Of a stretch of 26,174 nt of DNA, positions 1 to 21,216 are shown piece after piece. This stretch comes from Candidatus Zixiibacteriota bacterium (GTDB taxonomy: Bacteria > Zixibacteria > MSB-5A5 > CAIYYT01): NCBI GenBank assembly GCA_040235515.1, contig JBECKX010000001.1:1-26174 (forward strand), written 5' to 3'. The position numbers were made by a program, and so were the translations under genes. The notes below the pieces were generated by a model, which was given only the letters and a program-made list of their open reading frames with translations, was not told the DNA's origin and searched no databases. Numbering within the stretch: the first letter of the stretch is position 1; every line of letters begins with the position of its first letter.

Positions 1-1251
1 GTTGTTCTTGATACCGAGTATCCGATAATCCTTCAGCGCAAGAATCATCCGTTCGGTCGACTCCTCGCGATCCTTGCCGTAGGTAATCACCTTCGACATG
101 ATCGGATCATAGAAAATCGGTACCTCCACGCCGGAATAAACGCCGGTGTCGATGCGCAGATTGGCGCCCGCCGGCTCACGCAGGTAGACCAGCTTACCCG
201 CAGAGGGAAGAAACCCGCTCGCCGGGTCCTCGGCATAAACACGGCATTCGGTAGCATGACCGCGTTGCTGAATCTCATCTTGTTTGAACGACAACTTCTC
301 ACCGGAAGCAACTTTGATTTGTTCCTTTACCAGGTCAATTCCCGTCACAAGCTCCGTGATCGGGTGCTCCACCTGGATGCGCGTATTCACCTCCAGGAAA
401 TAGAACTTGCCATCCTGGAACAGAAACTCCACCGTGCCGGCAGAGGTGTAGTCTGCTGTCTTTGCCGCCGCCACAGCCGCCTCTCCCATCTGCTTGCGCA
501 ACTCAGGCGTCAGGGCAGGGGAGGGCGTTTCCTCGATAATTTTCTGATGTCGCCGTTGGATCGAACATTCGCGCTCGAAGAGGTGCACGGTGTTGCCATG
601 TTCGTCTGCCATCACCTGCACTTCGATATGACGCGGGCGACCGAGATACTTCTCAAGGTAAACCGTCGCATCACCGAACGCGGATTTGGCCTCGCGCTGC
701 GCGGCTTCGACGGCATCGATCAGATCGCCTTCATTCTCCACCACACGCATGCCCTTGCCGCCACCACCCGCGGCGGCCTTGACGAGCACGGGATAACCGA
801 TCTGACCCGCCAGCTTCCTGAACTCGGCATGATCACCCGACTTGACTTCACCACCCGGCACGGTCGGCACCTTAGCCTTCATCATCATGGCGCGGGCTTC
901 CAGCTTGTTGCCGAGCGAACGGATTGCTGCAGGTATCGGGCCTACGAACTTAAGACCGGCATCACCGACCGCCTTTGCGAACTCGGCATTTTCAGCGAGG
1001 AAGCCGTAACCGGGATGGACCGAGTCACACCCCGTCTTCCTGGCAGCCTCTATGATCTTCTCAACCACGAGGTAGCTTTCATTCGCCGGTGCGGGCCCAA
1101 GCAGAACTGACTCTGCGGCAGAGCGCACATGCAAGGCCTGCGTGTCAGCCTCCGAATAAACTGCAACTGTGGGGATACCGAGTTCCCGCGCTGCCCGCAT
1201 GATGCGGAGCGCGATTTCACCTCTGTTTGCAACTAGGATTTTCTTAAGCAT
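1..1251 (-). CDS. accC: Biotin carboxylase subunit, truncated at the window edge; by context probably the methylcrotonyl-CoA carboxylase alpha subunit (LiuD/MccA)
   Basis: Not in the ORF track because it runs off the left end. Manual translation from ATG 1251 gives MLKKILVANRGEIA, later HPGYGFLAEN, RDCGSGKDSRLHLCRHGG-region-independent motifs FLEVNTRIQVEHP and FYDPIMSKVI. Frame is open to position 1. Confidence 0.93.
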   Translation of the reverse strand, partial: MLKKILVANRGEIALRIMRAARELGIPTVAVYSEADTQALHVRSAAESVLLGPAPANESYLVVEKIIEAARKTGCDSVHPGYGFLAENAEFAKAVGDAGLKFVGPIPAAIRSLGNKLEARAMMMKAKVPTVPGGEVKSGDHAEFRKLAGQIGYPVLVKAAAGGGGKGMRVVENEGDLIDAVEAAQREAKSAFGDATVYLEKYLGRPRHIEVQVMADEHGNTVHLFERECSIQRRHQKIIEETPSPALTPELRKQMGEAAVAAAKTADYTSAGTVEFLFQDGKFYFLEVNTRIQVEHPITELVTGIDLVKEQIKVASGEKLSFKQDEIQQRGHATECRVYAEDPASGFLPSAGKLVYLREPAGANLRIDTGVYSGVEVPIFYDPIMSKVITYGKDREESTERMILALKDYRILGIKNN

Positions 1252-1340
1252 GGTTCCTGTTCAGCATTTTCCGTGATTGAACTTCTACGTTCGTTACAGC
1301 AGCCTCCCGCACCCGAACCGGAAGCTCACGTGTCGCTTGA

Positions 1341-1585
1341 CTCTGGCTCCCCGCTCCCTTGCAAGGGAGAGGAGCTGGGGATGAGGGTGCAAGCAGCACC
1401 ACTGCAATTGCTTTCATCATCCGTTGTCAAGCCCCAAGAGGGCTTGACCTACTTGCTATCGCTGGCGCAGCATGCTGCGCCCCTACGATCATTCATCCAC
1501 AATCCGGCAGCCTGTAGCCCAACCCCTCTTGAGAGGGGTCGTCCCGTCGATTCCGCAACGCGGAATCAAAGGGCGGGGGTGTGTT
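1341..1585. repeat. Composite REP-like palindromic repeat, copy 1 (partial)
   Basis: Near-identical direct repeat of about 2670-2914 and about 3110-3355. Contains hairpins CTCCCTTGCAAGGGAG, GTCAAGCCC..GGGCTTGAC-CTAC, GGCGCAGCATGCTGCGCC-CCTAC and ACCCCTCT..AGAGGGGT. Confidence 0.92.
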
Positions 1586-1609
1586 CTCAAGGCGCACACA
1601 GCCTGAGCC

Positions 1610-2404
1610 CTACTCCTCCTCCGGCACCCACTTCGGCGTGCGCTTATTAAGGAAGGCATCCATCCCCTCCTGTCCTTCCGGCGACTGCCGCAGGTCCGCG
1701 ATCATCCGCGCCGTATATTCCTTAAACTGCTCTACGGTTTGCCCCGGCACATTCTGAAGCAACTCCTTGCAAACCTTGATCGCCTCAGGCCCCGACGAAA
1801 GCAGCTTCTGCACAAGTCCGTTCACCGTTGCATCCAGCATCTCATCAGGCACCGAACGATTCACCAATCCAACCCGTTCGGCTGCGTTGCCATCGATGCG
1901 TTCACCGGTCAGAAACAACTCGCGTGCCCGACCCTCGCCAACACGCTTGATGACGTATGGCGAGATGCACGCCGGCACTACACCGATCTTCACCTCACTG
2001 AATGAGAAAATCGCGTTTTGCGCAGCGATAGCGATATCAGTCACCGCCACAAAACCAGTCCCACCACCGATCGCGGCGCCGTTAATCTTGCCGATGACCG
2101 GTTTGGGGAAAGAGTAGATATCGTAAAACAAGTCAGCCAGGCGGCGGGCTTCATCGAGATTATCCTCATAGGCGGCATCCTTGACGCTCCGCATCCAGTT
2201 GAGATCTGCACCGGCGCAGAATGATTTCCCTTCACCGGTAATCACCACCACGCGCACATCCTCATCCAGCTTCAACTTCTTGAACGCGAAGGTCATTTCG
2301 TCTATGACCTGATCATTAAAGGCGTTGTGTACTTCAGGCCGACAGAAGTGTACTTCCGCGACCGCGCCTTTGTTGATCACTCTGATAGTCTTGGAACCGT
2401 TCAT
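1610..2404 (-). CDS. liuC: Enoyl-CoA hydratase family protein, probable methylglutaconyl-CoA hydratase
   Basis: Crotonase motifs FCAGADLNWM, GAAIGGGTG, FSEVKIGVVPACISPYV and EGQEGMDAFL. Lies between MCC beta and biotin carboxylase genes. Confidence 0.88.
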   Translation of the reverse strand: MNGSKTIRVINKGAVAEVHFCRPEVHNAFNDQVIDEMTFAFKKLKLDEDVRVVVITGEGKSFCAGADLNWMRSVKDAAYEDNLDEARRLADLFYDIYSFPKPVIGKINGAAIGGGTGFVAVTDIAIAAQNAIFSFSEVKIGVVPACISPYVIKRVGEGRARELFLTGERIDGNAAERVGLVNRSVPDEMLDATVNGLVQKLLSSGPEAIKVCKELLQNVPGQTVEQFKEYTARMIADLRQSPEGQEGMDAFLNKRTPKWVPEEE

Positions 2405-2546
2405 CTATCTCCATCCGATTCGGTTGCATTGATCTAACTTCAAGACTGAGTGGCGTTCCCCAGCGGCATGCGCAGCATGCTCTACTCCGCAGGCGTCATT
2501 CCCGTGCAGGCGGGAATCCGGCAGGTCGGGTTCCCTTGGATGCCGA

Positions 2547-2914
2547 GAGTCAAGTTCCAGGTGAACTTGACCTACAATGCCTGCATCAATGTGTCTCTTC
2601 AATGGCCTCAACCCTGACCCATCTCCCACTCATGGGAGAGGGGAACTGGAAATCGGCTGATCGCCTAAGCTCCGGCTCACCTCTCCCTTGCAAGGGAAAG
2701 GGGCTGGGGGTGAGGGTGCACGGAGCACCACTGCAATTGCTTTCATCATCCGTTGTCAAGCCCCAAGAGGGCTTGACCTACTTGCTTTCACTGGCGCAGC
2801 ATGCTGCGCCCCTACGATCATTCATCCACAATCCGGCAGCCGGTAGCCCAACCCCTCTCGAGAGGGGTCGTCCCGTCTATTCCGCTACGCGGAATCAAGG
2901 GGCGGGGGTGTGTT
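2547..2914. repeat. Composite REP-like palindromic repeat, copy 2
   Basis: About 370 bp unit duplicated in tandem at 2987-3355 (offset 440-441 bp). Made of at least six hairpin modules; degenerate homology extends left to about 2516. Confidence 0.95.
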
Positions 2915-2986
2915 CCGGAAAACACTCGCAGAAAGTCCCTGCGCCCCAGGCGATCATCCAGTAAGTCGGATTTCCAGGACACCCAA

Positions 2987-3355
2987 GAGTCAAGTTCCAG
3001 GTGAACTTGACCTACAAGGCATGCATCTATGTGTCTCTTCAATGGCCTCACCCCTGACCCATCTCCCACTCATGGGAGAGGGGAACTGGAAATCGGCTGA
3101 TCGCCTAAGCTCCGGCTCACCTCTCCCTTGCAAGGGAGAGGGGCTGGGGGTGAGGGGGGCACGGAGCACCACTGCAATTGCTTTCATCATCCGTTGTCAA
3201 GCCCCAAGAGGGCTTGACCTACTTTCTTTCGCTGGCGCAGCATGCTGCGCCCCTACGATCATTCATCCACAATCCGGCATTCGGTAGCCCAACCCCTCTC
3301 GAGAGGGGTCGTCCCGTCAATTCCGCTACGCGGAATCAAGGGGCGGGGGTGTGTT
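2987..3355. repeat. Composite REP-like palindromic repeat, copy 3
   Basis: Direct repeat of 2547-2914 with scattered substitutions and a 1-bp indel in the G-run near 3154. Confidence 0.95.
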
Positions 3356-3369
3356 GGCCGGGACCCGAG

Positions 3370-4977
3370 CTACATCCTGAACACACCAAACTTGGCGTCC
3401 GGTATCGGGCGATTCAACGCCACCGCGATCGAAAGACCCAGCAAATCTCGCGTCTTCTTCGGGTCGATGATCCCATCATCCCAGATACGCGCAGTCGAAT
3501 AGTAGGCGCTCGACTCCATCAAATACTTTTCCAGCACCGGGCGCTTGAATTCCGCCTCTTCTTCCGGCGTCATCTTGCCGCCCCTCTTCTCGATCGCACG
3601 TTTCTTCACCGTTGTCAGGACATCCGCCGCCTGTTCACCACCCATCACGCAGATTTTGCCATTGGGCCACATCCAGAGGAAATTCGGGTCATAGCCGCGT
3701 CCACACATGGCGTAGTTGCCCGCGCCATAAGACCCTCCGACGATCACCGTGAACTTCGGCACCTGTGCATTCGCTACAGCGTGCACCAGCTTGGCGCCGT
3801 CACGGGCAATGCCGCCATGCTCATACTTCTTACCAACGATGAATCCGGTGATGTTCTGCAGGAAGAGCAGGGGGATCTTGCGGATCGCGCACATCTCGAT
3901 AAAATGCGCACCCTTCAGCGAACTCTCACTGAACAACACGCCGTTGTTTGCCAGGATTCCTACCGGGTAGCCATGAATCCGCGCAAATCCGCACACCAGC
4001 GTAATACCATACAGCGCCTTAAACTCCTGGAAGCGGCTGCCGTCGACGATGCGGGCAATCACTTCGCGGATATCATACGGTTGTCGCAGGTCAGCAGGCA
4101 CGACGCCATACAACTCCGTCGGATCATAGTGAGGTTCCTCAACCTCATGCCGATCTATCGGAAACTTCTGATTCCGGTCAAGTGCCTCGACAATGTTGCG
4201 CGTGATCGCGATCGCGTGCGCATCATCAAGGGCATAATGGTCGGCCGTTCCCGAGATGCGACAGTGAACATCCGCTCCACCAAGCTCTTCATCCGTCACC
4301 GACTCCCCGGTAGCTGCCTTCACCAGCGGCGGGCCACCGATGAAAATCGTTCCTTGCTCCTTGACGATAATCGCCTCATCCGACATCGCGGGCACATACG
4401 CCCCACCCGCCGTGCAACTTCCCATGACGCAGGCAATCTGCGGAATTCCCTCCGCGGACATCGTCGCCTGGTTGTAGAAAATCTTGCCGAAGTGATCCTT
4501 GTCCGGAAATGTGCCTGACTGTTCCGGCAGGAAAATCCCACCCGAGTCAACCAGGTAGATGCAGGGGAGCTTGTTCTTGAGTGCCACCTCCTGCGCGCGG
4601 ACATGCTTCTTGATCGTCATCGGGTAGTAGGTGCCGCCCTTGACCGTTGCGTCATTGGCGACCACCAGCACCTCCCGGCCATGCACGACCCCGATGCCCG
4701 TGACCATCCCGGCCGCCGGGGCATCGTTGTCATACATATCCCACGCAGCTAAAGGGGACAATTCTATGAACGGAGTATTGTCGTCGAACAGCTTGTTAAG
4801 GCGTTCTCGTACCGTCAGCTTGCCACGCTCTTTGTGGCGGTCGATGGCACGCTGCGGGCCGCCGGGACGTACCTTCTCCAGGCGCTCGCGCAGTTCATCG
4901 ACCAGCTTCCGGTTCTCTTCGAAATTGCGTTTGTAGTCGTCCGACTTAGTGTCGATCTTCGATTCTATGCGATACAT
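3370..4977 (-). CDS. liuB: Methylcrotonyl-CoA carboxylase beta (carboxyltransferase) subunit
   Basis: Motifs [66 protein letters not shown] and C-terminal FGVFRM, typical of MccB/LiuB. Confidence 0.92.
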
Positions 4978-5003
4978 CTAGGTATTCTTGAATCTCCAAC
5001 CGA

Positions 5004-5399
5004 CTAATTGTAAACCGGAACGAATTTGTAGCCGTACGCCAGCACGCCATGATGAGCATCGGTCTGCACGCGGCGGAACTCAATCTGCAGTTCCATGCCG
5101 GTCTTGATCTCATCGGTTGGAATGTCGACGATCTGCGCCGTCACATTCACCCCCTCAGGCATCTCGCAGATACCGAGCGCATAAGGCGCCTGATCCTTGA
5201 ACTGGCTGGCCGGGGTATGGATTACGGTATGGCTGATCAACTTGCCCTTGTCGGACAGCTTGATCGTCTCGAACTCGCGGCTCTTGCACTCGCGACAAAC
5301 AAGACGGTGCGGGAAATATACCACGCCGCACTTCTTGCACTTGCACGCCTCGAGGCGGTAGCGGTGCGGTATCTCACGATGATATCTTGCCGGATTCAT
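5004..5399 (-). CDS. DUF35 Zn-ribbon/OB-fold protein (thiolase/HMG-CoA synthase scaffold)
   Basis: CxxC-GxxxFP-R-xCxxC zinc ribbon followed by OB-fold ending YGYKFVP. Its ATG directly abuts the thiolase TAA. Confidence 0.92.
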   Translation of the reverse strand: MNPARYHREIPHRYRLEACKCKKCGVVYFPHRLVCRECKSREFETIKLSDKGKLISHTVIHTPASQFKDQAPYALGICEMPEGVNVTAQIVDIPTDEIKTGMELQIEFRRVQTDAHHGVLAYGYKFVPVYN

Positions 5400-6554
5400 T
5401 TATGCAACCTCCATCACATGCACGACTGAACTGCCGCCGGAGCCGCCCATATTCTGGGTGACACCAACTTTGGCATCCTTGACCTGGTTGTGGGCCTCAC
5501 CGCGCAACTGCTGCACGATCTCGATTCCCTGCGCGATTCCGGTTGCGCCGACCGGGTGCCCCTTCGATTTCAGACCGCCCGACGGATTGATCGGATGCTT
5601 GCCATCCACGCGCGTCTCGCCGTTGGCCGCTGCCTCAGCGCCCTTGCCGCAGGCGAAGAAGCCCATCGACTCGCTGACGATAATCTCCGCTATCGAGAAA
5701 CAATCATGCACCTCGGTCACGTCGATGTCGTGCACATCCTTGCCCGCCATCTGGAGGGCCTTCTGCGTGGCCATCTTAACCGCATCCAGCGTCGTCAGGT
5801 CGCGGCGATCATGCAGCGCGATCGAATCAGTCGCCATCGCCGAACCGATAATCTTGACCGGAGCCTTGTCGCTCAGTTCCTTCGCCCGATCGAGCGGGCA
5901 CAGGATCATCGCCGCCGCGCCGTCGGTGATCGGAGAACAGTCGAGGATTCGCAACGGCTCGGCGATCATCACCGAGTTGTTGACCTGCTCGATGCTCAGC
6001 TTCATCCGGTACTGGGCGTTCGGATTCTTGTTGCCGTTGTCATGCGCCTTGACCGGGATCGCCGAAAGCTGATCGCGCGTCATGCCGAAACGGTCCATAT
6101 AGTTGCGCGCCATCAGGGCGTAAAGGCCCGGGAAGGTCGCACCATGATAAACTTCATATTCCTGGTCGGCGGCGGTGGCCAGCGCGTAGGTCGCACCATC
6201 ACCCGACACATCGGTCATCTTCTCGACACCTCCCACCAGCACGATGTCACTTATGCCGGAGGCAACCTCGATGAACCCGGCGCGCAACGCGCAGCCACCC
6301 GAAGCGCACGCCGACTCAACGCGCATCGCGCTCAGGTAACGCTGACCGAGGTAGTCAGCCATGATCGAACCGATATGCTCCTGTCCGACGAACAAACCGC
6401 CCGACATGCAGCCGATATACATATTATCCAGTTTGTCGACTTTCGTCTCGTCGAGGGCGTTGAGCGCCGCCTCGACAAACAGATCGCGGAATGACTTCTC
6501 CCAAAGCTCACCCCACGGCTGCAAGCCGACGCCAATGATTGCTACATCTCTCAT
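5400..6554 (-). CDS. Archaeal-type (SCP2-thiolase-like) acetyl-CoA acetyltransferase
   Basis: ESACASGG catalytic Cys, [32 protein letters not shown] and C-terminal QNMGGSG. Confidence 0.93.
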
Positions 6555-6568
6555 CTATCTATCTCCAA

Positions 6569-7624
6569 TCAGACATTCTTCAAGATTTTGCGACGGAACT
6601 TGGCGTAGGTGCCATAGTTGATATAGTACTTCCGCTCATCGAGCAGCGTGAAGGTATCAACCGTGAGCTTCTGAACTTCTTTGATCCGGTCCGTAACCTG
6701 CCAGACAAAACCATCCGACCCGGCGCCGGAACCGTAGGAGACCATGAAAATCTTGTCTCCCGGCTTGGCGGCATCGAGAATCGCCGTCAGACCCAGCGGG
6801 GAAGCACCCGAATAGGTATTACCGAGACGCGGCGTCAGGCGACCACGATCCATCTGCGCTTCCGTGAAACCGAGCATCTTGCCCGCGCGGTGCGGGAACT
6901 TGCCGTTCGGCTGATGGAAGACCGCCCATTCGAAATCGGACGGCTTCATACCGCACTTCTTCAGCAGATCATTGGCAGCGCCGAGGGTATGCTTGAAGTA
7001 GGCCGGCTCACCCGTAAAGCGGCCGCCATGCTGCGGGTAAAACTCATGCTCGCGACGCCAGAAATCGGGCGTGTCGGTCATGTAACTGGTCGTATAGAGA
7101 CATTCGGCGATCAGGTTCTCCGAGCCGAACACGAACGCAGCCGCGCCGGCACCGGCGGAGTACTCGAGCGCATCACCGGGTGCGCCCTGCGACGTATCGG
7201 CGGCGATTCCCATACCCCATTCGATCTCACCCGCTTTGACCAGCGACTGGGCCACGAACATGCCCTCGGTCCCGGCTTTACAGGCGAACTCGAAATCTGC
7301 CACGCGGCAGAAGGGGGTTGCGCCGATCGCTTCGGCTACTACCGTTCCCGATGGCTTTACGGCATACGGGTGCGATTCCGAACCGATATACATGCAGCCG
7401 ATCTTGGTGCCGGGCACACCCGCGCGTTTCAGGGCGCGTTTGGCGGCTTCGACCGACAGGGTGATCGTGTCCTGATCCGGCGGCGGGACTGATTTCTCCC
7501 ACAACTCAAGACCTTTCTTGTACGACGGTGCATCGGCGCCCCAGGTATCGGCGATCTCTTCGACCTTCACCCGGTAGCGTGGGATATGCGCGCCGTAACC
7601 GACGATGCCAACTTTTTTCGACAT
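6569..7624 (-). CDS. mvaS: Archaeal-type hydroxymethylglutaryl-CoA synthase
   Basis: Motifs IGSESHPYAVKP (Glu), EFACKAGT (Cys), FHQPNGKFP (His), GNTYSG and SYGSGAGSD; 351 aa. RBS-like GAGG upstream. Confidence 0.93.
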   Translation of the reverse strand: MSKKVGIVGYGAHIPRYRVKVEEIADTWGADAPSYKKGLELWEKSVPPPDQDTITLSVEAAKRALKRAGVPGTKIGCMYIGSESHPYAVKPSGTVVAEAIGATPFCRVADFEFACKAGTEGMFVAQSLVKAGEIEWGMGIAADTSQGAPGDALEYSAGAGAAAFVFGSENLIAECLYTTSYMTDTPDFWRREHEFYPQHGGRFTGEPAYFKHTLGAANDLLKKCGMKPSDFEWAVFHQPNGKFPHRAGKMLGFTEAQMDRGRLTPRLGNTYSGASPLGLTAILDAAKPGDKIFMVSYGSGAGSDGFVWQVTDRIKEVQKLTVDTFTLLDERKYYINYGTYAKFRRKILKNV

Positions 7625-7867
7625 GAGTTACCTCGCTGTATCGTTAAAGTAGAAGTTTAAAGTCATGCTGTATTTCTGCCCTGATAATCCGAACTCGTGC
7701 GCGGGGTACGTCGCCGTGCACCGCGAGCAGTCTCTGCTTTGCAGGGGCATGCTGTGCATGCCCAATCGGAATCCTGTGCGCTGTGTACGTCCTCGTGCAC
7801 AGCACCGATTCAGCCGTAATCGCGCCCCGATTACGCCATTTCTACGCAAAAGAGGAGCGAAGCGCTA

Positions 7868-7896
7868 ATTTTATCGATAATGGAGGACAAAGTCAA
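7868..7896 (-). promoter_or_regulatory. Sigma70-type promoter for the HMGS-thiolase-DUF35-liu run
   Basis: Minus strand reads TTGACT-N17-TAAAAT. Confidence 0.7.
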
Positions 7897-7914: not shown

Positions 7915-8910
7915 CTAAGTCACCAGCGTGCCTAAGAAGAAATAACCATACTCGTCAGTGTTCCCGATGCTTCCAGTTATCTTCTCAGCAAATGAATCAT
8001 TTTCAACATAGACCGCCAGCCCGTCTGGTGAAGCATACAAACAGATGTTTCCAGTCTGATTTTTTGTCACAAAAGGCAGCTTTCGACTGTTCCAGGCGGC
8101 GTAGGCAAGATTCTCTGAAGGGGCACAACCGAGAACGCTCATGCTTGGATTCAGATGCGACAGGAAACTGAAGTCAGCCTCGGATTGTCTGCCGTGATGA
8201 GGTGCGAGCAGGAACCTGCAGTTTTCAAGAATGCCCTGGAAGGTTGCGACTGCAGACTCCCAAGCACGATCGCGGGCATCACCAGGAAAGATTATGTTCC
8301 CTGCCGGAGTCTGAAAAGCTATCATGTAGGAGGCATCGTTGATTTTCGTCGCTGTCTCTGAGAGATTCGCCTCCTGTACAAGTTGAGAGTTTGGGCCGCA
8401 GATTTCGATATTGTCACCCTTTCCCCCTTCATCATCCGAATTCCAGTACTTGCCGGTCGAGCCGGCCTCCGGCTGTATCACAGTTATGTCTGTGCGAGCA
8501 CCTGAGATGAGGGATTCATACGCATTCCAATCCTCTTCCAAGTACGGAGAGCCAGCGAAGTCAGGTTTTGATTTCCGAACTCCTGAATCCCAGAAATTGA
8601 CAACTTCAAACTCCGACAGCAGTCTTGCGAGTCCGTCCATGTGATCCATATCTGGGTGTGTGAGGATAAATCTAAATACCGAAGATGTCCTCAGCTTGTC
8701 TCGCAAATATTTGAGAGGATTGGTAGGATGTTTGCACATTCTGAAATTGCCTCTCCCCTTTGGCCTCTGAAAAAACGCATCGGCCACTATCTCCTCCAGA
8801 GTTGGTTCACGGTTTCCCATACAAATGTCTACCATTGTTATACGACCGCTATCTGAGCGAATAATACTGCAGTCACCCTGCCCTACGTTTAGGATATGCA
8901 CTTCACTCAT
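7915..8910 (-). CDS. Stand-alone ComEC/Rec2-type metallo-beta-lactamase-fold hydrolase
   Basis: Motifs NVGQGD, THPDMDHMDG, NDAS, PGDA and APHHG. No membrane competence domain and no signal peptide. Start placed at ATG 8910, overlapping the upstream gene's TGA; the ORF track extends to 8943. Confidence 0.87.
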   Translation of the reverse strand: MSEVHILNVGQGDCSIIRSDSGRITMVDICMGNREPTLEEIVADAFFQRPKGRGNFRMCKHPTNPLKYLRDKLRTSSVFRFILTHPDMDHMDGLARLLSEFEVVNFWDSGVRKSKPDFAGSPYLEEDWNAYESLISGARTDITVIQPEAGSTGKYWNSDDEGGKGDNIEICGPNSQLVQEANLSETATKINDASYMIAFQTPAGNIIFPGDARDRAWESAVATFQGILENCRFLLAPHHGRQSEADFSFLSHLNPSMSVLGCAPSENLAYAAWNSRKLPFVTKNQTGNICLYASPDGLAVYVENDSFAEKITGSIGNTDEYGYFFLGTLVT

Positions 8911-9382
8911 TGGGTGTTCTGCTTCCCTCCCTTCGTTGGACATCAGAAGCTTTTGACTTTGAAACTCCCCAAACAGACTGGGCTACCGCCTCGAGTTTCC
9001 TTAAGAAATTGTCAACATTGTACCCCGAAACAAAGGCGACCGCTAGGTAGCCATACACCGAACTATTGTCCACGACTTCTGCGTCCAGCATCAGTAGACC
9101 AGCCTTCAAGAACAGGTAACTGGCGAATCCTGAGATCGTACTGGCTATGGGCCTGAGGTAATACCAGACATGCCAATCAGTATCCCACTTCTTTAGCACA
9201 CACTTGTTTAAGTACACTCCTCTAAGACAATAGAGGCATCCACCGATCCCTCCAACCACGGATGCTCTTAATGCCTCAACTATGCCCAAATACCACGCAG
9301 GCATTGTCAGGACTCTATCCGTGATCAAGAGGCACAGGAGAGACGCAACAACGGTTAGCTCGTAGAGAACGATTCGATACAC
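8903..9382 (-). CDS. Hypothetical membrane protein (about 4 TM segments)
   Basis: Hydrophobic segments with motifs GGIGG, WYYLRP and AFVSGY. Likely GTG start at 9382 after AAGGTGG; the ORF track extends to 9499. Confidence 0.75.
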   Translation of the reverse strand: MYRIVLYELTVVASLLCLLITDRVLTMPAWYLGIVEALRASVVGGIGGCLYCLRGVYLNKCVLKKWDTDWHVWYYLRPIASTISGFASYLFLKAGLLMLDAEVVDNSSVYGYLAVAFVSGYNVDNFLRKLEAVAQSVWGVSKSKASDVQRREGSRTPNE

Positions 9383-9536
9383 TTCATCCACCTTGGCTAT
9401 GAACTGAGAAGCGGAGCAGATGAGCCCTTTCAATTTGGACGGGCTTTTGCCCGCGCCAACTTTGTAGTAAAGCAAAACTTCGTGCTGCGAGTCAATCACT
9501 TTTGCTCAAAAGGTTTATGGCCACAATCTATGACCT

Positions 9537-13124: not shown

Positions 13125-13140
13125 CGGCATGAGCTTTGCA
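13125..13140 (+). promoter_or_regulatory. Putative sigma54 (-24/-12) promoter
   Basis: CGGCATGAGCTTTGCA gives GG-N10-GC with TTGCA, about 30 bp upstream of the start codon. AT-rich tract at about 13010-13070. Confidence 0.55.
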
Positions 13141-13168
13141 AATCCAGGGTGGAGAAGAAGGAGGACGT

Positions 13169-16015
13169 GTGGCTAAGCACATATCTTATAAGTATACGCC
13201 TGAATTCGCGCCGAAGCGAAATCTCGGCAAGCGCTCATTTTGGGTTGCTGCTCTTATCCTCGTGCTCCTGGCGGTGGTCCTGATTTCCTGGTCGACCCTG
13301 TTTGCGGCCAACCACCCCGGAACGAGCGACTTCCTGCAGCAACGAATTCAGCGCCATGAGGCGGCATCGGCAAGTCAGTTTACCAGGCTGAATGGAACAC
13401 CAAAAGCCGCGACCTCAGTGCGTTCAATCTCAATGATTGGTGCCGCCTCGCAGGGGGTACTTGTAAGTGAATCCACCGCACCCGCCACCTTCGCACAGGA
13501 CTACAGCGACATAGCATCATTCGCCGACGGTTCCTCCATCGTCGTATGGCAGGATAACCGTAATGGCGACCAGGATATCTTCATCCGCAAAATCGCCGCT
13601 GACGGCTCCGTCACGGATGCCAATATCGACCTCGTTTCCGATCCCGATTTCCATGACCAGATCCAGCCACAAGTTACGGTCAACTCAAGCAACCTGGCCC
13701 TTGTCATCTATAATGACGCCACAACGGCAGAGATCTATGGCATTGTGCTCGACAACACGCTTGCGCCGGTCGCCGGACCGATTCTCATCAATGAACCGGC
13801 GTCAGAAATAGTCGTGAATATGCCCGCTGTCGCACCTCTGAGCGGCAATCGCTTCGTGGTGGTCTGGGAGGATAGCCGGGCCGGAGCCAGCATCTTCGCG
13901 CAGATACTAGGTGGGGATGGCTCATTGCACGGCAGCAATTTTAAGATCAACGGCGGCGGAGCGGCAGCGTACCGAATCTCTCCCGACGTAATCTCAAGCC
14001 TCAATGGTGACTTCGCGGTAGTTTGGGAAGAACCCACCAGCGGCAGCCCCGACGTGATGTTTAGAATCTTCACCGATGTCGGCACCGCGCTCTTTCCGGA
14101 CTTGCAGGTAGCTTCAGCATATTCATCCGCCACGCAGGTAATGCCGGCGGTCTCATACCTCGGCAACCAGCAATACCTCGTCGGCTGGATCTCAGATCGA
14201 GGCGGCAACCAGAACGCCTGGGCACAACGAATCACGACTTCATCGACCGAAGCCGATACCTCGTTTCGGCTGAATGCCGCTGATGAAGACCTCTGCTGGG
14301 ATGTCTCCTTCGTCCAAACCTCCGGCGGCGGCGTCGCGGCTCTCTGGGCTGACTACGCCGGTCCCAGCGCGATCAAACTGCAACAACTCAACTCCGCAGG
14401 CGAATTCGTCGACACCAATCTCTCCCTCGAGGACCCGGCGCTTCTGCGTGAACGCAGCTTTCCCCATGGAAGCGCCGCTGCAGATGAATATCGCTTCGTC
14501 TGGACAGACCACCGCAACGATAATGCAGATATCTACCTGCAACGCCTTGATGATGTCTTCCTGAAACTGGGTACCAACTCCATTGTAAACGACGATGCAG
14601 CCGGCAGTCAGCAACTCGACCCCGATATCGCATTGATCAGCTCCAACGGTTCAGCTGTCGTCTGGTGTGACGAGCAAAGCGATGGCGGAGATATCTATTA
14701 CAGATTCGTCAGTCAAAATGGCGATCTCATCGGCTCTGCATTGCGCGTCAACGATGACATCGGTAAGGCCGTGCAGTCCTCACCACGAGTCGCCGGCAAT
14801 AGAAGCGGCAAGGGGGTCGCGGTCTGGGCCGACAGTCGGACGGTGAGCGGCCACTCCAGTCAGCAAATCATGGGACAGGTACTCACCACGACGCCGGGAC
14901 TGAGCGGCAGCAACTTTCTCATCAGCAACGATGCTACCGGCCTGCCGAAAAGTGACCCCGACATCGCTATGGCGCCCGATGGCGCCTATGCCGTCGTGTG
15001 GACAGACCGCAGGGATGGTTCGCAGCAAATCTACATGCAGGGCTACAACGCAGGTGGAGCCGCGGTCGGAAGCAATAGCAAGATATCAGGTATAGTCTCA
15101 ACATCAGCCAATTTCCAACCCAGCGTTAGCATCGATGACGATCACTCCGGAGTGATTGCGTGGTTGGCAGTGGATGGCGACGAGCAGGTCATCTACTACG
15201 AATTCTTCGATTCCAGCTTTGATCTCGATGGCGCCAACCAGTTACTCCCGGTCTCGTCGGACGGCGTGATCACTGCTGTCCGGGTGTACCACCATTCAGC
15301 ATCAGGCATCAACTTCTTCGCCTACCTCCGCGATCTCGGTGAATCAGCGCAGGTGGAACTCCTCGCTGTGGACGCCACCAAGGCCAATGTTTGGGGACCG
15401 ATTGTCATCAATGAGGAAACCGCTACCACAATCTCCTCGCTGAAGATCGGTGGTAGCTCCACCGCCGTTGGCGTTACCTGGAGCGATTTCCGCACCGGTA
15501 GCGAGCGTGTCTGGATGCAACTGGTCAACCTCGACGGTACCCTGATCATGAGCAATCTCCCGTTGAGCGGCCTCACTCAATCTGCCCGTGAGAAACAACC
15601 GGCAATCATCCTCGCCGAATCATACTACTATACGACCTGGGTGGATAACCGCACACCCTCTGAAGGCTACGACGTCTTCTTCACGAACGACCAGTTCACC
15701 GCCACCGATGTCGATGACAACGTCGTCGTGCTGCCCGATCAGTTTGAACTGAATCAAAACTATCCGAATCCCTTCAATCCTGAAACCGTGATCAGCTTCG
15801 CACTCGGCACGCCGCAGCATGTCCGGTTGACCATCTACAACACCCTCGGTCAGCGTGTGCGTACCCTCGTGAACGATCACCAGCCGGCGGGCTTCCATCG
15901 AGTCCGCTGGGACAGCAGGGATGATTCAGGTCGAGCGGTTGCCAGTGGAGTTTATCTCTACCGCCTGGAGACGGCTGACGCCATCCTCACCCGCAAGATG
16001 ACCCTGATCAAGTAG
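13169..16015 (+). CDS. Large exported repeat protein (beta-propeller-like) with C-terminal FlgD-Ig/T9SS type A-like sorting domain
   Basis: GTG start after AGGAGG; hydrophobic N-terminal segment; about 13 repeats of P.....VVW.D.R....I..Q......G; C-terminus LNQNYPNPFNPET...SGVYLYRL...RKMTLIK. Confidence 0.88.
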   Translation: MAKHISYKYTPEFAPKRNLGKRSFWVAALILVLLAVVLISWSTLFAANHPGTSDFLQQRIQRHEAASASQFTRLNGTPKAATSVRSISMIGAASQGVLVSESTAPATFAQDYSDIASFADGSSIVVWQDNRNGDQDIFIRKIAADGSVTDANIDLVSDPDFHDQIQPQVTVNSSNLALVIYNDATTAEIYGIVLDNTLAPVAGPILINEPASEIVVNMPAVAPLSGNRFVVVWEDSRAGASIFAQILGGDGSLHGSNFKINGGGAAAYRISPDVISSLNGDFAVVWEEPTSGSPDVMFRIFTDVGTALFPDLQVASAYSSATQVMPAVSYLGNQQYLVGWISDRGGNQNAWAQRITTSSTEADTSFRLNAADEDLCWDVSFVQTSGGGVAALWADYAGPSAIKLQQLNSAGEFVDTNLSLEDPALLRERSFPHGSAAADEYRFVWTDHRNDNADIYLQRLDDVFLKLGTNSIVNDDAAGSQQLDPDIALISSNGSAVVWCDEQSDGGDIYYRFVSQNGDLIGSALRVNDDIGKAVQSSPRVAGNRSGKGVAVWADSRTVSGHSSQQIMGQVLTTTPGLSGSNFLISNDATGLPKSDPDIAMAPDGAYAVVWTDRRDGSQQIYMQGYNAGGAAVGSNSKISGIVSTSANFQPSVSIDDDHSGVIAWLAVDGDEQVIYYEFFDSSFDLDGANQLLPVSSDGVITAVRVYHHSASGINFFAYLRDLGESAQVELLAVDATKANVWGPIVINEETATTISSLKIGGSSTAVGVTWSDFRTGSERVWMQLVNLDGTLIMSNLPLSGLTQSAREKQPAIILAESYYYTTWVDNRTPSEGYDVFFTNDQFTATDVDDNVVVLPDQFELNQNYPNPFNPETVISFALGTPQHVRLTIYNTLGQRVRTLVNDHQPAGFHRVRWDSRDDSGRAVASGVYLYRLETADAILTRKMTLIK

Positions 16016-18699: not shown

Positions 18700-21048
18700 C
18701 TATTCGGCCGGCGCCGGACATCCCGCGCAGGGTGCCGGCCCTCCACCGAATATGAAGTTGACCAGGTATACAGCGTCCGAAATCGTGGCCTTCTGGTCGC
18801 AGTTCACATCCCCACCCGCGAGATCACGCGGCGGTGCGCCACCACCGAAGATGTAGTTCAGCAGGTAAACCGCATCGCTCACCGACACCGAACCAAGCCC
18901 ATCCAGGTCACCGCAAATTGAACTACAGCCTACAGCCTTGGCTCCAATCAATTCTCCGCAACTGTTGTTTGCAGGAGCACACTGCGATGAAGCGAGGACG
19001 TTGTAGAAGTTGTTCGCTGTGTCGCAAAACATCGGCTCGGCCGAGAAGTTGCCGAACAACTCGGCCTGTCCCGCGGCACAATCCTGGAAATCACCGAACT
19101 CATTCCCGAACATATCGGTGCAGAGTAACGAAAAAGTACCCACGCAATTGAGCGCACCTGCTCCCTCGCCGTATGCGATGATGCTCAGGCTGACGGTCAC
19201 ATTGCCCGGATTTGTACTCAGTTGTGATCCGATCGAGGCGCTGTTGGAGACAAACGTACAATTGGAAAACTCAACGGCCGACTGATAGCATTGAGCCGCA
19301 CCGCCCAGGAACGCCGTGTTACGCGCAAAAGTGCAGTAGTTGAATTTCGAGGGCGAGCTGAATGCGCAGTCCACCGCCCCGCCATCGATCGTAGCCGTGT
19401 TGTTAATGAAGGTGCAGTTAGTAACGGTGCAGGGAGAATTCTGCCAGCAGTAAAGCCCACCGGCATTCTCGGTTTGTCCTCCCTCGAAGTAGCACCCAAT
19501 GATGCGCGGGCTCGAACCGAACACCGCAGCTATGCCACCTCCGGCATGTCCTTTGCCACCGATGAACCGGCAGTCAACGATCGTCGGTGATGACGCCTGG
19601 ATTCTGATTCCTCCACCCATCGGAAAACCGGGATGGCTCGGATGGTCTACCGCTACACCATTGATGATCGTCAGTCCGCTGATTACAGTCGTGCTATCCT
19701 CGCCCCGAAAGATGTGAAATGCCCGATGTGGTTCCACATCAGTACCCTCACAATCGATGATCGTCTGATCGACTGCTCCCGAGGACGTTATCACCACTAT
19801 CTTTTCATTCAAGTCGACGTCCCGGTTGCCATCACCCGTGTAAGTCCCCGGTGCGAGAAAGATCGAATCACCCGGGAGCGAAGCATTCACCGCCGCCTGA
19901 ATCGTGGGATAATCCCCCGTTCCCTCGGCGTTGATATACAGGTTGTTACCGCCCGGTACACAGGCTGGATTCACCGCTCCTGATCCAACCAACATCCCGC
20001 ACGGGCTATGGCTCGGAGCGCACGGCGAGTCGGCCGCAATCTTGTACGGATCTTCCGCATCCGGGCAAAACAGCGGCGGAGCGCTGAAGTTGTTGTTCAT
20101 CGTCGCCTGTGAAGCGATGCAGCCAATAGCCCAGTCTCCTTCGATGTTTGCATAGATATTCGTGCATTCCAACACCGGGGATCCGGCGACACAGTTCACC
20201 ACCAGATCCTGGTAGTTCTGCGTCAGCAGGCAACGCGTCAACGTTGGATCGCTCTGGTTCGCGTTAAGCACCGAACCGAGGCCCGCGTTGTTGGCTACAA
20301 AGGTGCAGTTTTCAAAATCCGTGTCACACTGGTCGAAGCACATGATCGCACCACCAACCGGCGCGCTGTTAAAAGAAAACGCACAAAAGCTCACGCTGCC
20401 GGGAGATGAAAACGCAAAATCAATCGCGCCACCATCATTCTCCACACTGTTGGAGTCAAACACACACAATTCGATCACGGTAGGGGAATTCTGCCAGCAA
20501 TAAACGCCGCCGCCATACTCGGCATAGTTGGAGATGAATTTACATCTCCTGATCGTCGCATTCGATCCCGATGTCGCAGCTACTCCGCCTCCACCGTGGG
20601 CAACGTTGTCGCGAAACACACAATCCTGGATGATCGGGCTTGAACCCTCAATAAACACCCCCGCTCCCTTCGGATAGTCCGTTGTCCCGAAATCGTCGAA
20701 AATATAGGCATTCATGATCGTGAAACCCTCCACGACCAGATTGGCATCCTCGCCACTCGTGATCATAAAACCGCGCCGGTCAAAGCCAACCACACCGCCG
20801 ACATCGATGATCGTCATGCCGGCTCCCGCCTGACCACGATAAACCAGTAGCTTGCCCCCGGGATCGATGTCGAAATTGCCTGATCCCGAGTAAGTGCCCG
20901 GCATCACCAGGACAGTGTCGAAATCATTCGCCGCAGCGGTAGCTGCCATGATCGTTGGATAGGAATCGGGTACGACCAGTTCCGCCCCCGTCGCTGCGGT
21001 TGTGAACAAAAGTACAACTGATAGAATTAACAAAACGTGCACTCGCAT
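18700..21048 (-). CDS. Secreted protein with two tandem right-handed parallel beta-helix modules and a C-terminal dockerin-like domain
   Basis: Signal peptide from ATG 21048 (RBS AAAGGTGG); two YPTI.AA...GTY modules with N.A..GGG repeats; paired GD.(D/N)......SDAVYL.N.IFGGG.AP at the C-terminus. Confidence 0.88.
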   Translation of the reverse strand: MRVHVLLILSVVLLFTTAATGAELVVPDSYPTIMAATAAANDFDTVLVMPGTYSGSGNFDIDPGGKLLVYRGQAGAGMTIIDVGGVVGFDRRGFMITSGEDANLVVEGFTIMNAYIFDDFGTTDYPKGAGVFIEGSSPIIQDCVFRDNVAHGGGGVAATSGSNATIRRCKFISNYAEYGGGVYCWQNSPTVIELCVFDSNSVENDGGAIDFAFSSPGSVSFCAFSFNSAPVGGAIMCFDQCDTDFENCTFVANNAGLGSVLNANQSDPTLTRCLLTQNYQDLVVNCVAGSPVLECTNIYANIEGDWAIGCIASQATMNNNFSAPPLFCPDAEDPYKIAADSPCAPSHSPCGMLVGSGAVNPACVPGGNNLYINAEGTGDYPTIQAAVNASLPGDSIFLAPGTYTGDGNRDVDLNEKIVVITSSGAVDQTIIDCEGTDVEPHRAFHIFRGEDSTTVISGLTIINGVAVDHPSHPGFPMGGGIRIQASSPTIVDCRFIGGKGHAGGGIAAVFGSSPRIIGCYFEGGQTENAGGLYCWQNSPCTVTNCTFINNTATIDGGAVDCAFSSPSKFNYCTFARNTAFLGGAAQCYQSAVEFSNCTFVSNSASIGSQLSTNPGNVTVSLSIIAYGEGAGALNCVGTFSLLCTDMFGNEFGDFQDCAAGQAELFGNFSAEPMFCDTANNFYNVLASSQCAPANNSCGELIGAKAVGCSSICGDLDGLGSVSVSDAVYLLNYIFGGGAPPRDLAGGDVNCDQKATISDAVYLVNFIFGGGPAPCAGCPAPAE

Positions 21049-21216
21049 GGCATACCACCTTTCTCGCAGGTGTGCAGAAACCGGGATTGATGCCGGAGCA
21101 TGCACTCAGATTCCTGCTTCGCCCGCAGAGCTTATTGCTGCTATGAGAAGAAATCAGGGCCTGTTTTCACGTTCGCCTCGCGGCTGTGGCTGTTCGGTTT
21201 TGGAGGTTCTGCTATC

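Follow-up and report, generated by a model that had tools for sequence, protein, structure and literature searches.

Archaeal-type HMG-CoA synthase genes joined to leucine catabolic genes in Zixibacteria, and a possible reversal of HMG-CoA synthesis

Introduction

A stretch of DNA from a Candidatus Zixiibacteriota bacterium carries, in one apparent operon, genes of the archaeal type for making 3-hydroxy-3-methylglutaryl-coenzyme A (HMG-CoA) and genes that lead to the same compound from leucine. The window analyzed here is the entire contig C172, 26,174 nt long. HMG-CoA is approachable from both sides and has no known exit in this genome; one half of the operon must therefore run against its textbook direction. 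Which half is it? We infer, with moderate confidence, that the operon is catabolic for leucine, a branched-chain amino acid, and that the HMG-CoA synthase, the thiolase and the DUF35 protein (the trio) take the place of HMG-CoA lyase by running in reverse. A preliminary description of the locus had offered two other options, an HMG-CoA hub feeding mevalonate and a Myxococcus-like route to isovaleryl-CoA.

Gene content of the operon

Gene identities were assigned by profile matches to NCBIfam and Pfam models with their cut-offs and by sequence matches to solved structures. All six co-directional genes of the preliminary description are present where it had placed them, on the minus strand, and the gene identities and the functional link of the archaeal trio to leucine genes hold. 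The first gene (6569-7624) codes for an archaeal-type HMG-CoA synthase (HMGS) of 351 aa that matches TIGR00748 with 494 bits (cut-off 353). Its best solved relative is 6ESQ (450 bits), and the tetrad E83, C115, H237 and N269 is kept in 136/136 aligned sequences. The second (5400-6554) codes for an archaeal-type acetoacetyl-CoA thiolase of 384 aa, above the cut-off of PRK06064. Its best solved match is chain A of 6ESQ (382 bits), and it carries the motifs CAS, HDCF and GHP, corresponding to CxS, HDxF and GHx. The third (5004-5399) codes for a 131 aa DUF35 scaffold, a zinc ribbon plus OB fold (PF12172 and PF01796) with two CxxC pairs. By analogy with 6ESQ, the three proteins would form a complex with a shared CoA site.

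The fourth gene (3370-4977) codes for a carboxyltransferase of 535 aa. It scores 759 bits against 3U9R, the beta subunit of methylcrotonyl-CoA carboxylase (MCC), versus 474 bits against geranyl-CoA carboxylase and at most 284 bits against the propionyl-CoA carboxylase (PCC) type. These matches identify it, by a wide margin, as MCC-beta (LiuB). A sodium-pumping biotin decarboxylase (Gcd/Mmd) was considered and rejected: glutaconyl-CoA decarboxylase (GcdA) gives 149-166 bits, and PF03977, the OadB-type membrane beta subunit, has 0 matches in the host genome. The fifth gene (1610-2404, 264 aa) codes for a crotonase whose best NCBIfam models, PRK07468 and PRK05674, both fall below cut-off. It is likely the methylglutaconyl-CoA hydratase LiuC, as its position between the MCC subunits suggests. 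The sixth (1-1251) codes for a biotin carboxylase, the N-terminal part of LiuD, and is cut by the contig end. The gaps between the genes, in operon order, are 14, 0, 26, 965 and 358 bp; the 26 bp between DUF35 and liuB agree with the earlier count.

The operon continues on contig C175, which starts with an exact 127-base overlap to C172 that is unique to these two contigs. The biotin carboxylase frame stays open across the overlap and codes for 495 aa. It is followed on C175 by genes for a biotin carrier with the biotin motif (361-870), an AtoB-type thiolase (1123-2313), Hbd (2381-3232), two acyl-CoA dehydrogenases, ACAD1 and ACAD2 (3337-5630), and by ilvE (5657-6598). A genome of the same genus has this gene order on a single contig (L064). 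To the left of the window, the carrier, the acyl-CoA dehydrogenases and ilvE thus adjoin, but liuE was not found genome-wide. An adjacent liuA plus liuE had been named as the sign of ordinary leucine catabolism; two acyl-CoA dehydrogenases, of which one may be LiuA, adjoin, and the lyase half was not found.

HMG-CoA in the host genome

The host genome is 100% complete by markers and lies in 218 contigs. Searches of it returned 0 matches to PF00682, hence no LiuE and no LeuA, and 0 matches to the HMG-CoA lyase model NF004283; tblastn with the enzymes of two relatives also gave no match. HMG-CoA reductase (PF00368) gave 0 matches (controls positive, 5/14), as did AtuA and the CoA-transferase family PF01144 of the ScoAB/AibAB type, the latter also in 0/21 genomes of the family. 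In the CitE/HpcH family none was over cut-off. The preliminary description had noted that lyase and reductase are missing from the window, and this extends to the whole host genome. The lack of any other exit among the families searched (PF00682, PF00368, AtuA, CitE/HpcH and PF01144) supports a trio that splits HMG-CoA.

DXR is present and reductase is absent by search, which places the genome on the side of the methylerythritol phosphate (MEP) pathway. A hub supplying mevalonate from both acetyl-CoA and leucine therefore fails for the host genome, barring a reductase of non-homologous type; the genome also has no match to an IDI-2-like gene. Reductase occurs in 0/16 genomes of the same family and in 27/201 genomes of the phylum sample described below. 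A better case exists elsewhere in the phylum: of the 27 reductase genomes, 26 also carry the synthase and 15 are without DXR, so that such a use is plausible there. As an account of this operon we regard the hub as very improbable; in the 26 genomes with both synthase and reductase, mevalonate supply may be a secondary use of the trio. The other 140 of 166 synthase-bearing genomes are without reductase. In most of the 27, reductase and a GHMP kinase form one fusion protein of about 770-800 aa; in one such locus (L043:403-3841) the fusion lies next to an FMN-dependent IDI-2-like gene.

The host genome further encodes VorB, Kor, Pfor, Ior, Ptb, Buk, PCC-type genes and two B12 mutases. The presence of Vor, Buk, Ptb and of PCC- and mutase-type genes supports a catabolic operon, as does an intact ATP-dependent carboxylase with no OadB. 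In locus L069 genes for leucine dehydrogenase and butyrate kinase come after the operon, which fits the same reading. One B12 mutase (L002:2009-3715, on G000:C184) has Phe where the other has Tyr, which we take to be the signature of isobutyryl-CoA mutase; it adjoins MeaB, an acyl-CoA dehydrogenase and a PCC-beta-type gene.

The inventory also bears on an anabolic alternative, which we consider unlikely. Here the trio would make HMG-CoA, LiuC would dehydrate it, MCC would be reversed as an ATP-making decarboxylase, and an acyl-CoA dehydrogenase would reduce methylcrotonyl-CoA to isovaleryl-CoA, a precursor of iso-fatty acids or, by way of Vor and IlvE, of leucine. MCC and Vor are reversible, which would permit this direction. 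The synthase would work in its known direction with its active site intact, and HMGS is the first gene behind the candidate promoter. The host genome has no LeuA-family gene, IlvD was not found in it, and VorB is present. M. xanthus runs LiuC backwards (PMC9636800). On the other side, the host genome has neither AibAB nor OadB, and there is no AibC-like gene in the locus, where alone it was looked for. The AibAB decarboxylase has a CoA-transferase fold.

IlvD was used as the marker of branched-chain synthesis. IlvC was useless for this purpose, as it is found in 191/201 genomes of the phylum; this lone IlvC (G000:C203:18763-19749 in the host) is kept despite IlvD in 1/201. Its neighbor was taken for PanB, wrongly; it is RlmB. 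Etf genes are scattered and gave no sign of the direction of the pathway.

Distribution across the phylum

The phylum sample consisted of 201 genomes, an even draw from a larger group and all of one class. HMGS is above cut-off in 162 of them (166 with partial genes counted) and MCC-beta in 178. DXR is found in 177 and AtuA in 50, and 28 have a gene of the HMG-CoA lyase family over cut-off. The archaeal-type synthase and MCC-beta occur together in 156 genomes. For 130 of these both positions were listed; the two genes share a contig in 103, and in 99 of the 103 MCC-beta is co-directional, downstream and no more than 16 kb from HMGS. The linkage is not chance. Twenty synthase loci on long contigs were selected and fetched; they represent 11 families. 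All 20 have the trio and then MCC-beta and hydratase, 19 have the biotin carboxylase as well, and 11 have an acyl-CoA dehydrogenase within 20 kb. The synteny that the preliminary description wished to see checked is thus conserved across relatives, in most of the sampled genomes.

The matches to the lyase family are of two kinds. Nine lie in liu clusters and 20 are of a weaker type, one genome having both; of the weaker type 11 were fetched and 0 lie near MCC genes. With genomes bearing the weaker type left out of the count, 82 of the 156 synthase and MCC-beta genomes have none of AtuA, a lyase-family gene or reductase. The missing lyase was also considered as an assembly gap, which recurrence in 82 genomes rules out.

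A sample of all prokaryotes comprised 80 loci of at least 598 matches; many loci are incomplete, and the phylum titles are those of the submitters. MCC-beta lies within 9 kb of the trio in 26 of the 80; among their titles are Eisenbacteria, Aminicenantes, Acidobacteriota, Glassbacteria, Kapabacteria, Stahlbacteria and Cloacimonadota (trio and MCC in L168). Beside the trio, reductase was seen in 1 locus, from an archaeon, lyase in 0 and AtuA in 8. In three loci (L162, titled Kapabacteria, L164 and L165) the trio lies beside two acyl-CoA dehydrogenases, a fused isobutyryl-CoA mutase IcmF and MCC-beta.

These counts cut both ways for a further explanation, to which we give a rather low probability: HMG-CoA from leucine would leave through an unrecognised enzyme encoded elsewhere, and the trio would run forward for another purpose and be only co-regulated, for example in an HMG-CoA cycle in which AtuA or LiuE drives acetoacetyl-CoA formation. 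The trio coexists with AtuA or LiuE in 39 of the 156 genomes and stands beside AtuA in the 8 of 80 sampled loci. About 20 genomes have the second lyase-family gene, with a CoA-transferase III neighbor, and the host assembly is in 218 contigs. However, the five exit families were not found in the host genome, and 82 genomes without an exit go beyond assembly gaps. A forward trio joined to a catabolic MCC with no exit would be a dead end, and the tight joining of trio and MCC is kept in 11 families. The second lyase-family gene (L061:245-2388, L093-L103) also lies near unassigned 430-aa and 165-aa genes, away from the MCC cluster, and its product may use the free hydroxy acid.

Replacement of the trio by lyases

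The genomes that have MCC-beta but no synthase number 22. AtuA is present in 15 of these and LiuE, with ScoAB, in 3. Of the remaining 4, 2 have a trio that runs off the end of a contig and 2 are assemblies of at least 400 contigs. The 13 genomes with neither synthase nor MCC-beta include 0 with AtuA, LiuE or reductase. In all 11 fetched trio-less AtuA genomes, AtuA is directly upstream of MCC-beta, and in several genomes that keep both it stands between the trio and MCC-beta. In a tree of MCC-beta the AtuA-linked sequences nest inside the trio-linked clade (support 0.987), so AtuA would have joined the trio operon and the trio been lost afterwards. The LiuE-linked sequences form a separate clade (support 1.0), which includes one trio-linked locus.

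In family f4 the AtoB-Hbd-ACAD-ACAD block recurs, here behind a liuBCD-carrier-liuE-scoAB cluster. Of the 9 LiuE genomes 8 have a ScoAB pair; families f1-f3, f6, f7 and f10-f18 have none. The lack of such pairs in the 13 trio-reliant families, f2 among them, is expected if acetoacetyl-CoA is released directly.

AtuA has tentatively been described as an isohexenylglutaryl-CoA:acetate lyase (PMC4847356) and is the expected acetate-releasing lyase of a terpene pathway (PMC4847356, PMC13689101). One AtuA sequence gave no match in the PDB, and the best E of a profile search was 0.018. A structure model of AtuA (pLDDT 85) has a single match at E <= 0.001, the citramalate lyase 9EVF (E 3e-24). The model suggests that AtuA is a C-C lyase. 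The single-chain AtuA (L112:1813-3606, L076:7177-9006) matches both chains of 9EVF. In three Ignavibacteria-titled loci (L196, L199 and L200) AtuA is split into separate genes, which come immediately after the trio.

Judged by gene content and sequence, three predicted modules fill one slot: LiuE with ScoAB, AtuA, or the trio, which is interchangeable with two C-C lyases. That two of the three are lyases points to catabolism, with the trio as the step that would split HMG-CoA, and the swap of trio for AtuA or LiuE beside the MCC genes is among the supports for this direction. The same pattern speaks against the anabolic route, since lyases stand in the place of the trio and a forward trio expressed alongside AtuA would use up acetyl-CoA to no purpose. 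The Myxococcus-like option of the preliminary description, with a biotin enzyme in place of AibAB, is disfavored by the lyases that replace the trio beside the same MCC genes. IlvD occurs in 1/201 genomes of the phylum, which can be read in favor of an anabolic route, but it occurs in 0 of the trio-less ones, which must then import branched-chain amino acids; this supports catabolism. Thirteen relatives have no trio, no MCC and no IlvD, so an anabolic route would be dispensable there.

Direction of the pathway

The catabolic route with a reversed trio would proceed as follows. Leucine would be converted to 2-oxoisocaproate by IlvE, and this to isovaleryl-CoA by Vor, which is encoded elsewhere in the genome. 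One of the two acyl-CoA dehydrogenases would form methylcrotonyl-CoA, MCC would carboxylate it to methylglutaconyl-CoA with use of ATP, and LiuC would hydrate the product to HMG-CoA. The synthase would then split HMG-CoA, leaving acetoacetyl-CoA and an acetyl-enzyme. Thiolysis by the coupled thiolase would draw the reaction on, for a sum of HMG-CoA + 2 CoA to 3 acetyl-CoA. Such a route would gain one thioester per leucine over LiuE and ScoAB. In a variant, hydrolysis of the acetyl-enzyme would leave 2 acetyl-CoA and acetate. For flux in reverse, the ratio of acetyl-CoA to CoA would have to be low. At about +26 kJ/mol for the thiolase condensation and about -31 to -33 for the synthase reaction, the channeled sum is near equilibrium. 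A back reaction has reportedly been observed for the HMGS of S. aureus.

Several points weigh against this direction. First, HMG-CoA synthase is regarded as irreversible. The active site here is the same as in the forward archaeal enzyme, and only 2 columns separate 49 MCC-linked from 3 archaeal HMGS sequences, which is no sign of adaptation. Second, 15 genomes have reductase but no DXR, and there the HMG-CoA for mevalonate must come from the trio or from leucine. Third, ACAD2 scores 368 bits to 5OL2 and at most 281 bits to solved isovaleryl-CoA dehydrogenases; its closest solved relatives, 5OL2 and 4L1F, are presumably reductive butyryl-CoA dehydrogenases, and this closeness to Bcd-type enzymes suits the anabolic direction. 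Fourth, the LiuE-linked liu cluster is imported; it replaced the cluster as a whole and is less strong evidence than AtuA. Fifth, the trio is not always lost upon arrival of a lyase: among the 156 genomes, 35 have AtuA as well as the trio and 4 have LiuE together with a divergent trio at another locus, and in G120 (L090, G120:C30) the trio converges on liuE of the imported liu cluster. Finally, the Fisher P of 4e-7 for the substitution association is overstated, with few independent events among kin. The divergent trio (L124-L128, family f5, where liuBCDE is also present) is at a separate locus, with 55-57% identity and the tetrad intact where aligned. The imported liu cluster of G120 has its MCC-beta in two pieces.

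Also conceivable, though we find it improbable, is a fully reversible network of CoA esters that needs no lyase. Acetyl-CoA would pass through HMG-CoA to isovaleryl-CoA, with MCC reversed and making ATP, and on to leucine by carboxylation through Vor and amination through IlvE; AtoB, Hbd, an acyl-CoA dehydrogenase and the isobutyryl-CoA-mutase-type enzyme would supply the skeletons of isoleucine and valine. If true, it would add a new way of making branched-chain amino acids de novo.

Promoter, repeats and neighboring genes

A candidate sigma-70-like promoter lies at 7868-7896 on the minus strand, about 245 bp upstream of HMGS, with 10/12 consensus positions matched. Sites of this type occur at chance frequency (5 found versus 6.0 +/- 2.4 expected in 12 kb). 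Of 20 relatives, 14 have a TTG-led -35/-10-like motif in the 300 bp that precede HMGS.

The 965-bp gap between carboxyltransferase and crotonase and the 358-bp gap between crotonase and biotin carboxylase are filled with palindromic repeats. The first holds an inserted REP-like cluster (2405-3369) with tandem copies at a spacing of about 440 bp. The second (1252-1609) holds a third copy, a 246-nt repeat with 94% identity to 2670-2915. The units are composites of several palindrome families, each with 17-55 copies genome-wide. As the carboxyltransferase-crotonase gap is only a few bases in several relatives, the repeat-filled gaps look like recent insertions. IS200-like genes (weak Y1_Tnp matches) occupy the trio-MCC gap in two loci (L072 and L079). 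An Rfam scan of the window and of the C175 stretch (L001) gave no match.

Just upstream of the operon (7915-9499) are a metallo-beta-lactamase-fold gene, with weak matches to ComEC and the anti-phage protein 6A-MBL, and an unassigned membrane-like gene; possibly the pair is an inserted defense pair. Large secreted-looking proteins are encoded at 13136-16015 and 18700-21105, one with a C-terminal FlgD-Ig domain and one with beta-helix repeats.

Relation to known systems

The Methanothermococcus thermolithotrophicus complex (6ESQ/6ET9) shares with the trio its three subunits, the catalytic tetrad and the thiolase motifs. The trio differs in its bacterial host with MEP and no reductase, its joining to MCC genes and its predicted reverse action. 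Pseudomonas liuABCDE has in common with the operon MCC-beta, biotin carboxylase, carrier, a probable LiuC-type hydratase, acyl-CoA dehydrogenases and ilvE; here, however, no LiuE or ScoAB was found, carboxylase and carrier are separate proteins instead of one alpha subunit, and the trio stands at the missing step. The MvaS/LiuC/AibAB/AibC route of Myxococcus xanthus has the same intermediates and likewise a synthase and a hydratase. The synthase here is of the archaeal type (121 bits to TIGR01835, cut-off 360), the biotin enzyme is intact, AibAB is absent by search and the direction is likely opposite. AtuA and the citramalate lyase CmlAB (9ERQ, 9EVF) are similar in that AtuA occupies the same slot in relatives and, going by the title of the structure entry and by analogy, would release acetate by cleaving a tertiary hydroxy acid; AtuA was not found in the host genome, and the fold is unrelated to the trio.

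Bacterial re-use of the three-gene scaffold is known from the PhlABC/MucABC Friedel-Crafts acyltransferases, which have lost the E-C-H-N tetrad and HDxF (PMC12960953); the trio retains both. In Ca. Cloacimonetes an orphan thiolase and HMG-CoA synthase beside a full MEP pathway were filed under mevalonate (PMC7852524). These are likely the same genes, and the available text of that paper mentions no link to leucine. The word leucine has 0 occurrences in the main text of PMC3903129 (Zixibacteria RBG-1) and in the main text of PMC6107057 as available; the supplements of both may bear on it. No description of a trio-leucine operon was found in the literature covered, with most subscription journals and all supplements outside that coverage. 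The parts are each known; their combination and proposed direction are new as far as that literature goes.

Significance

The trio-MCC arrangement is the majority state in the phylum and appears in loci titled with at least 7 other phyla. The substitution pattern names HMG-CoA as a likely substrate of AtuA proteins. The reverse run, if true, would be a physiological reversal enabled by channeling to the thiolase, in parallel with reversed citrate synthase, and amino-acid fermenters would gain one extra thioester per leucine. Trio genes in these organisms are annotated as a partial mevalonate pathway; the metabolic models of many uncultured bacteria would then need correcting.

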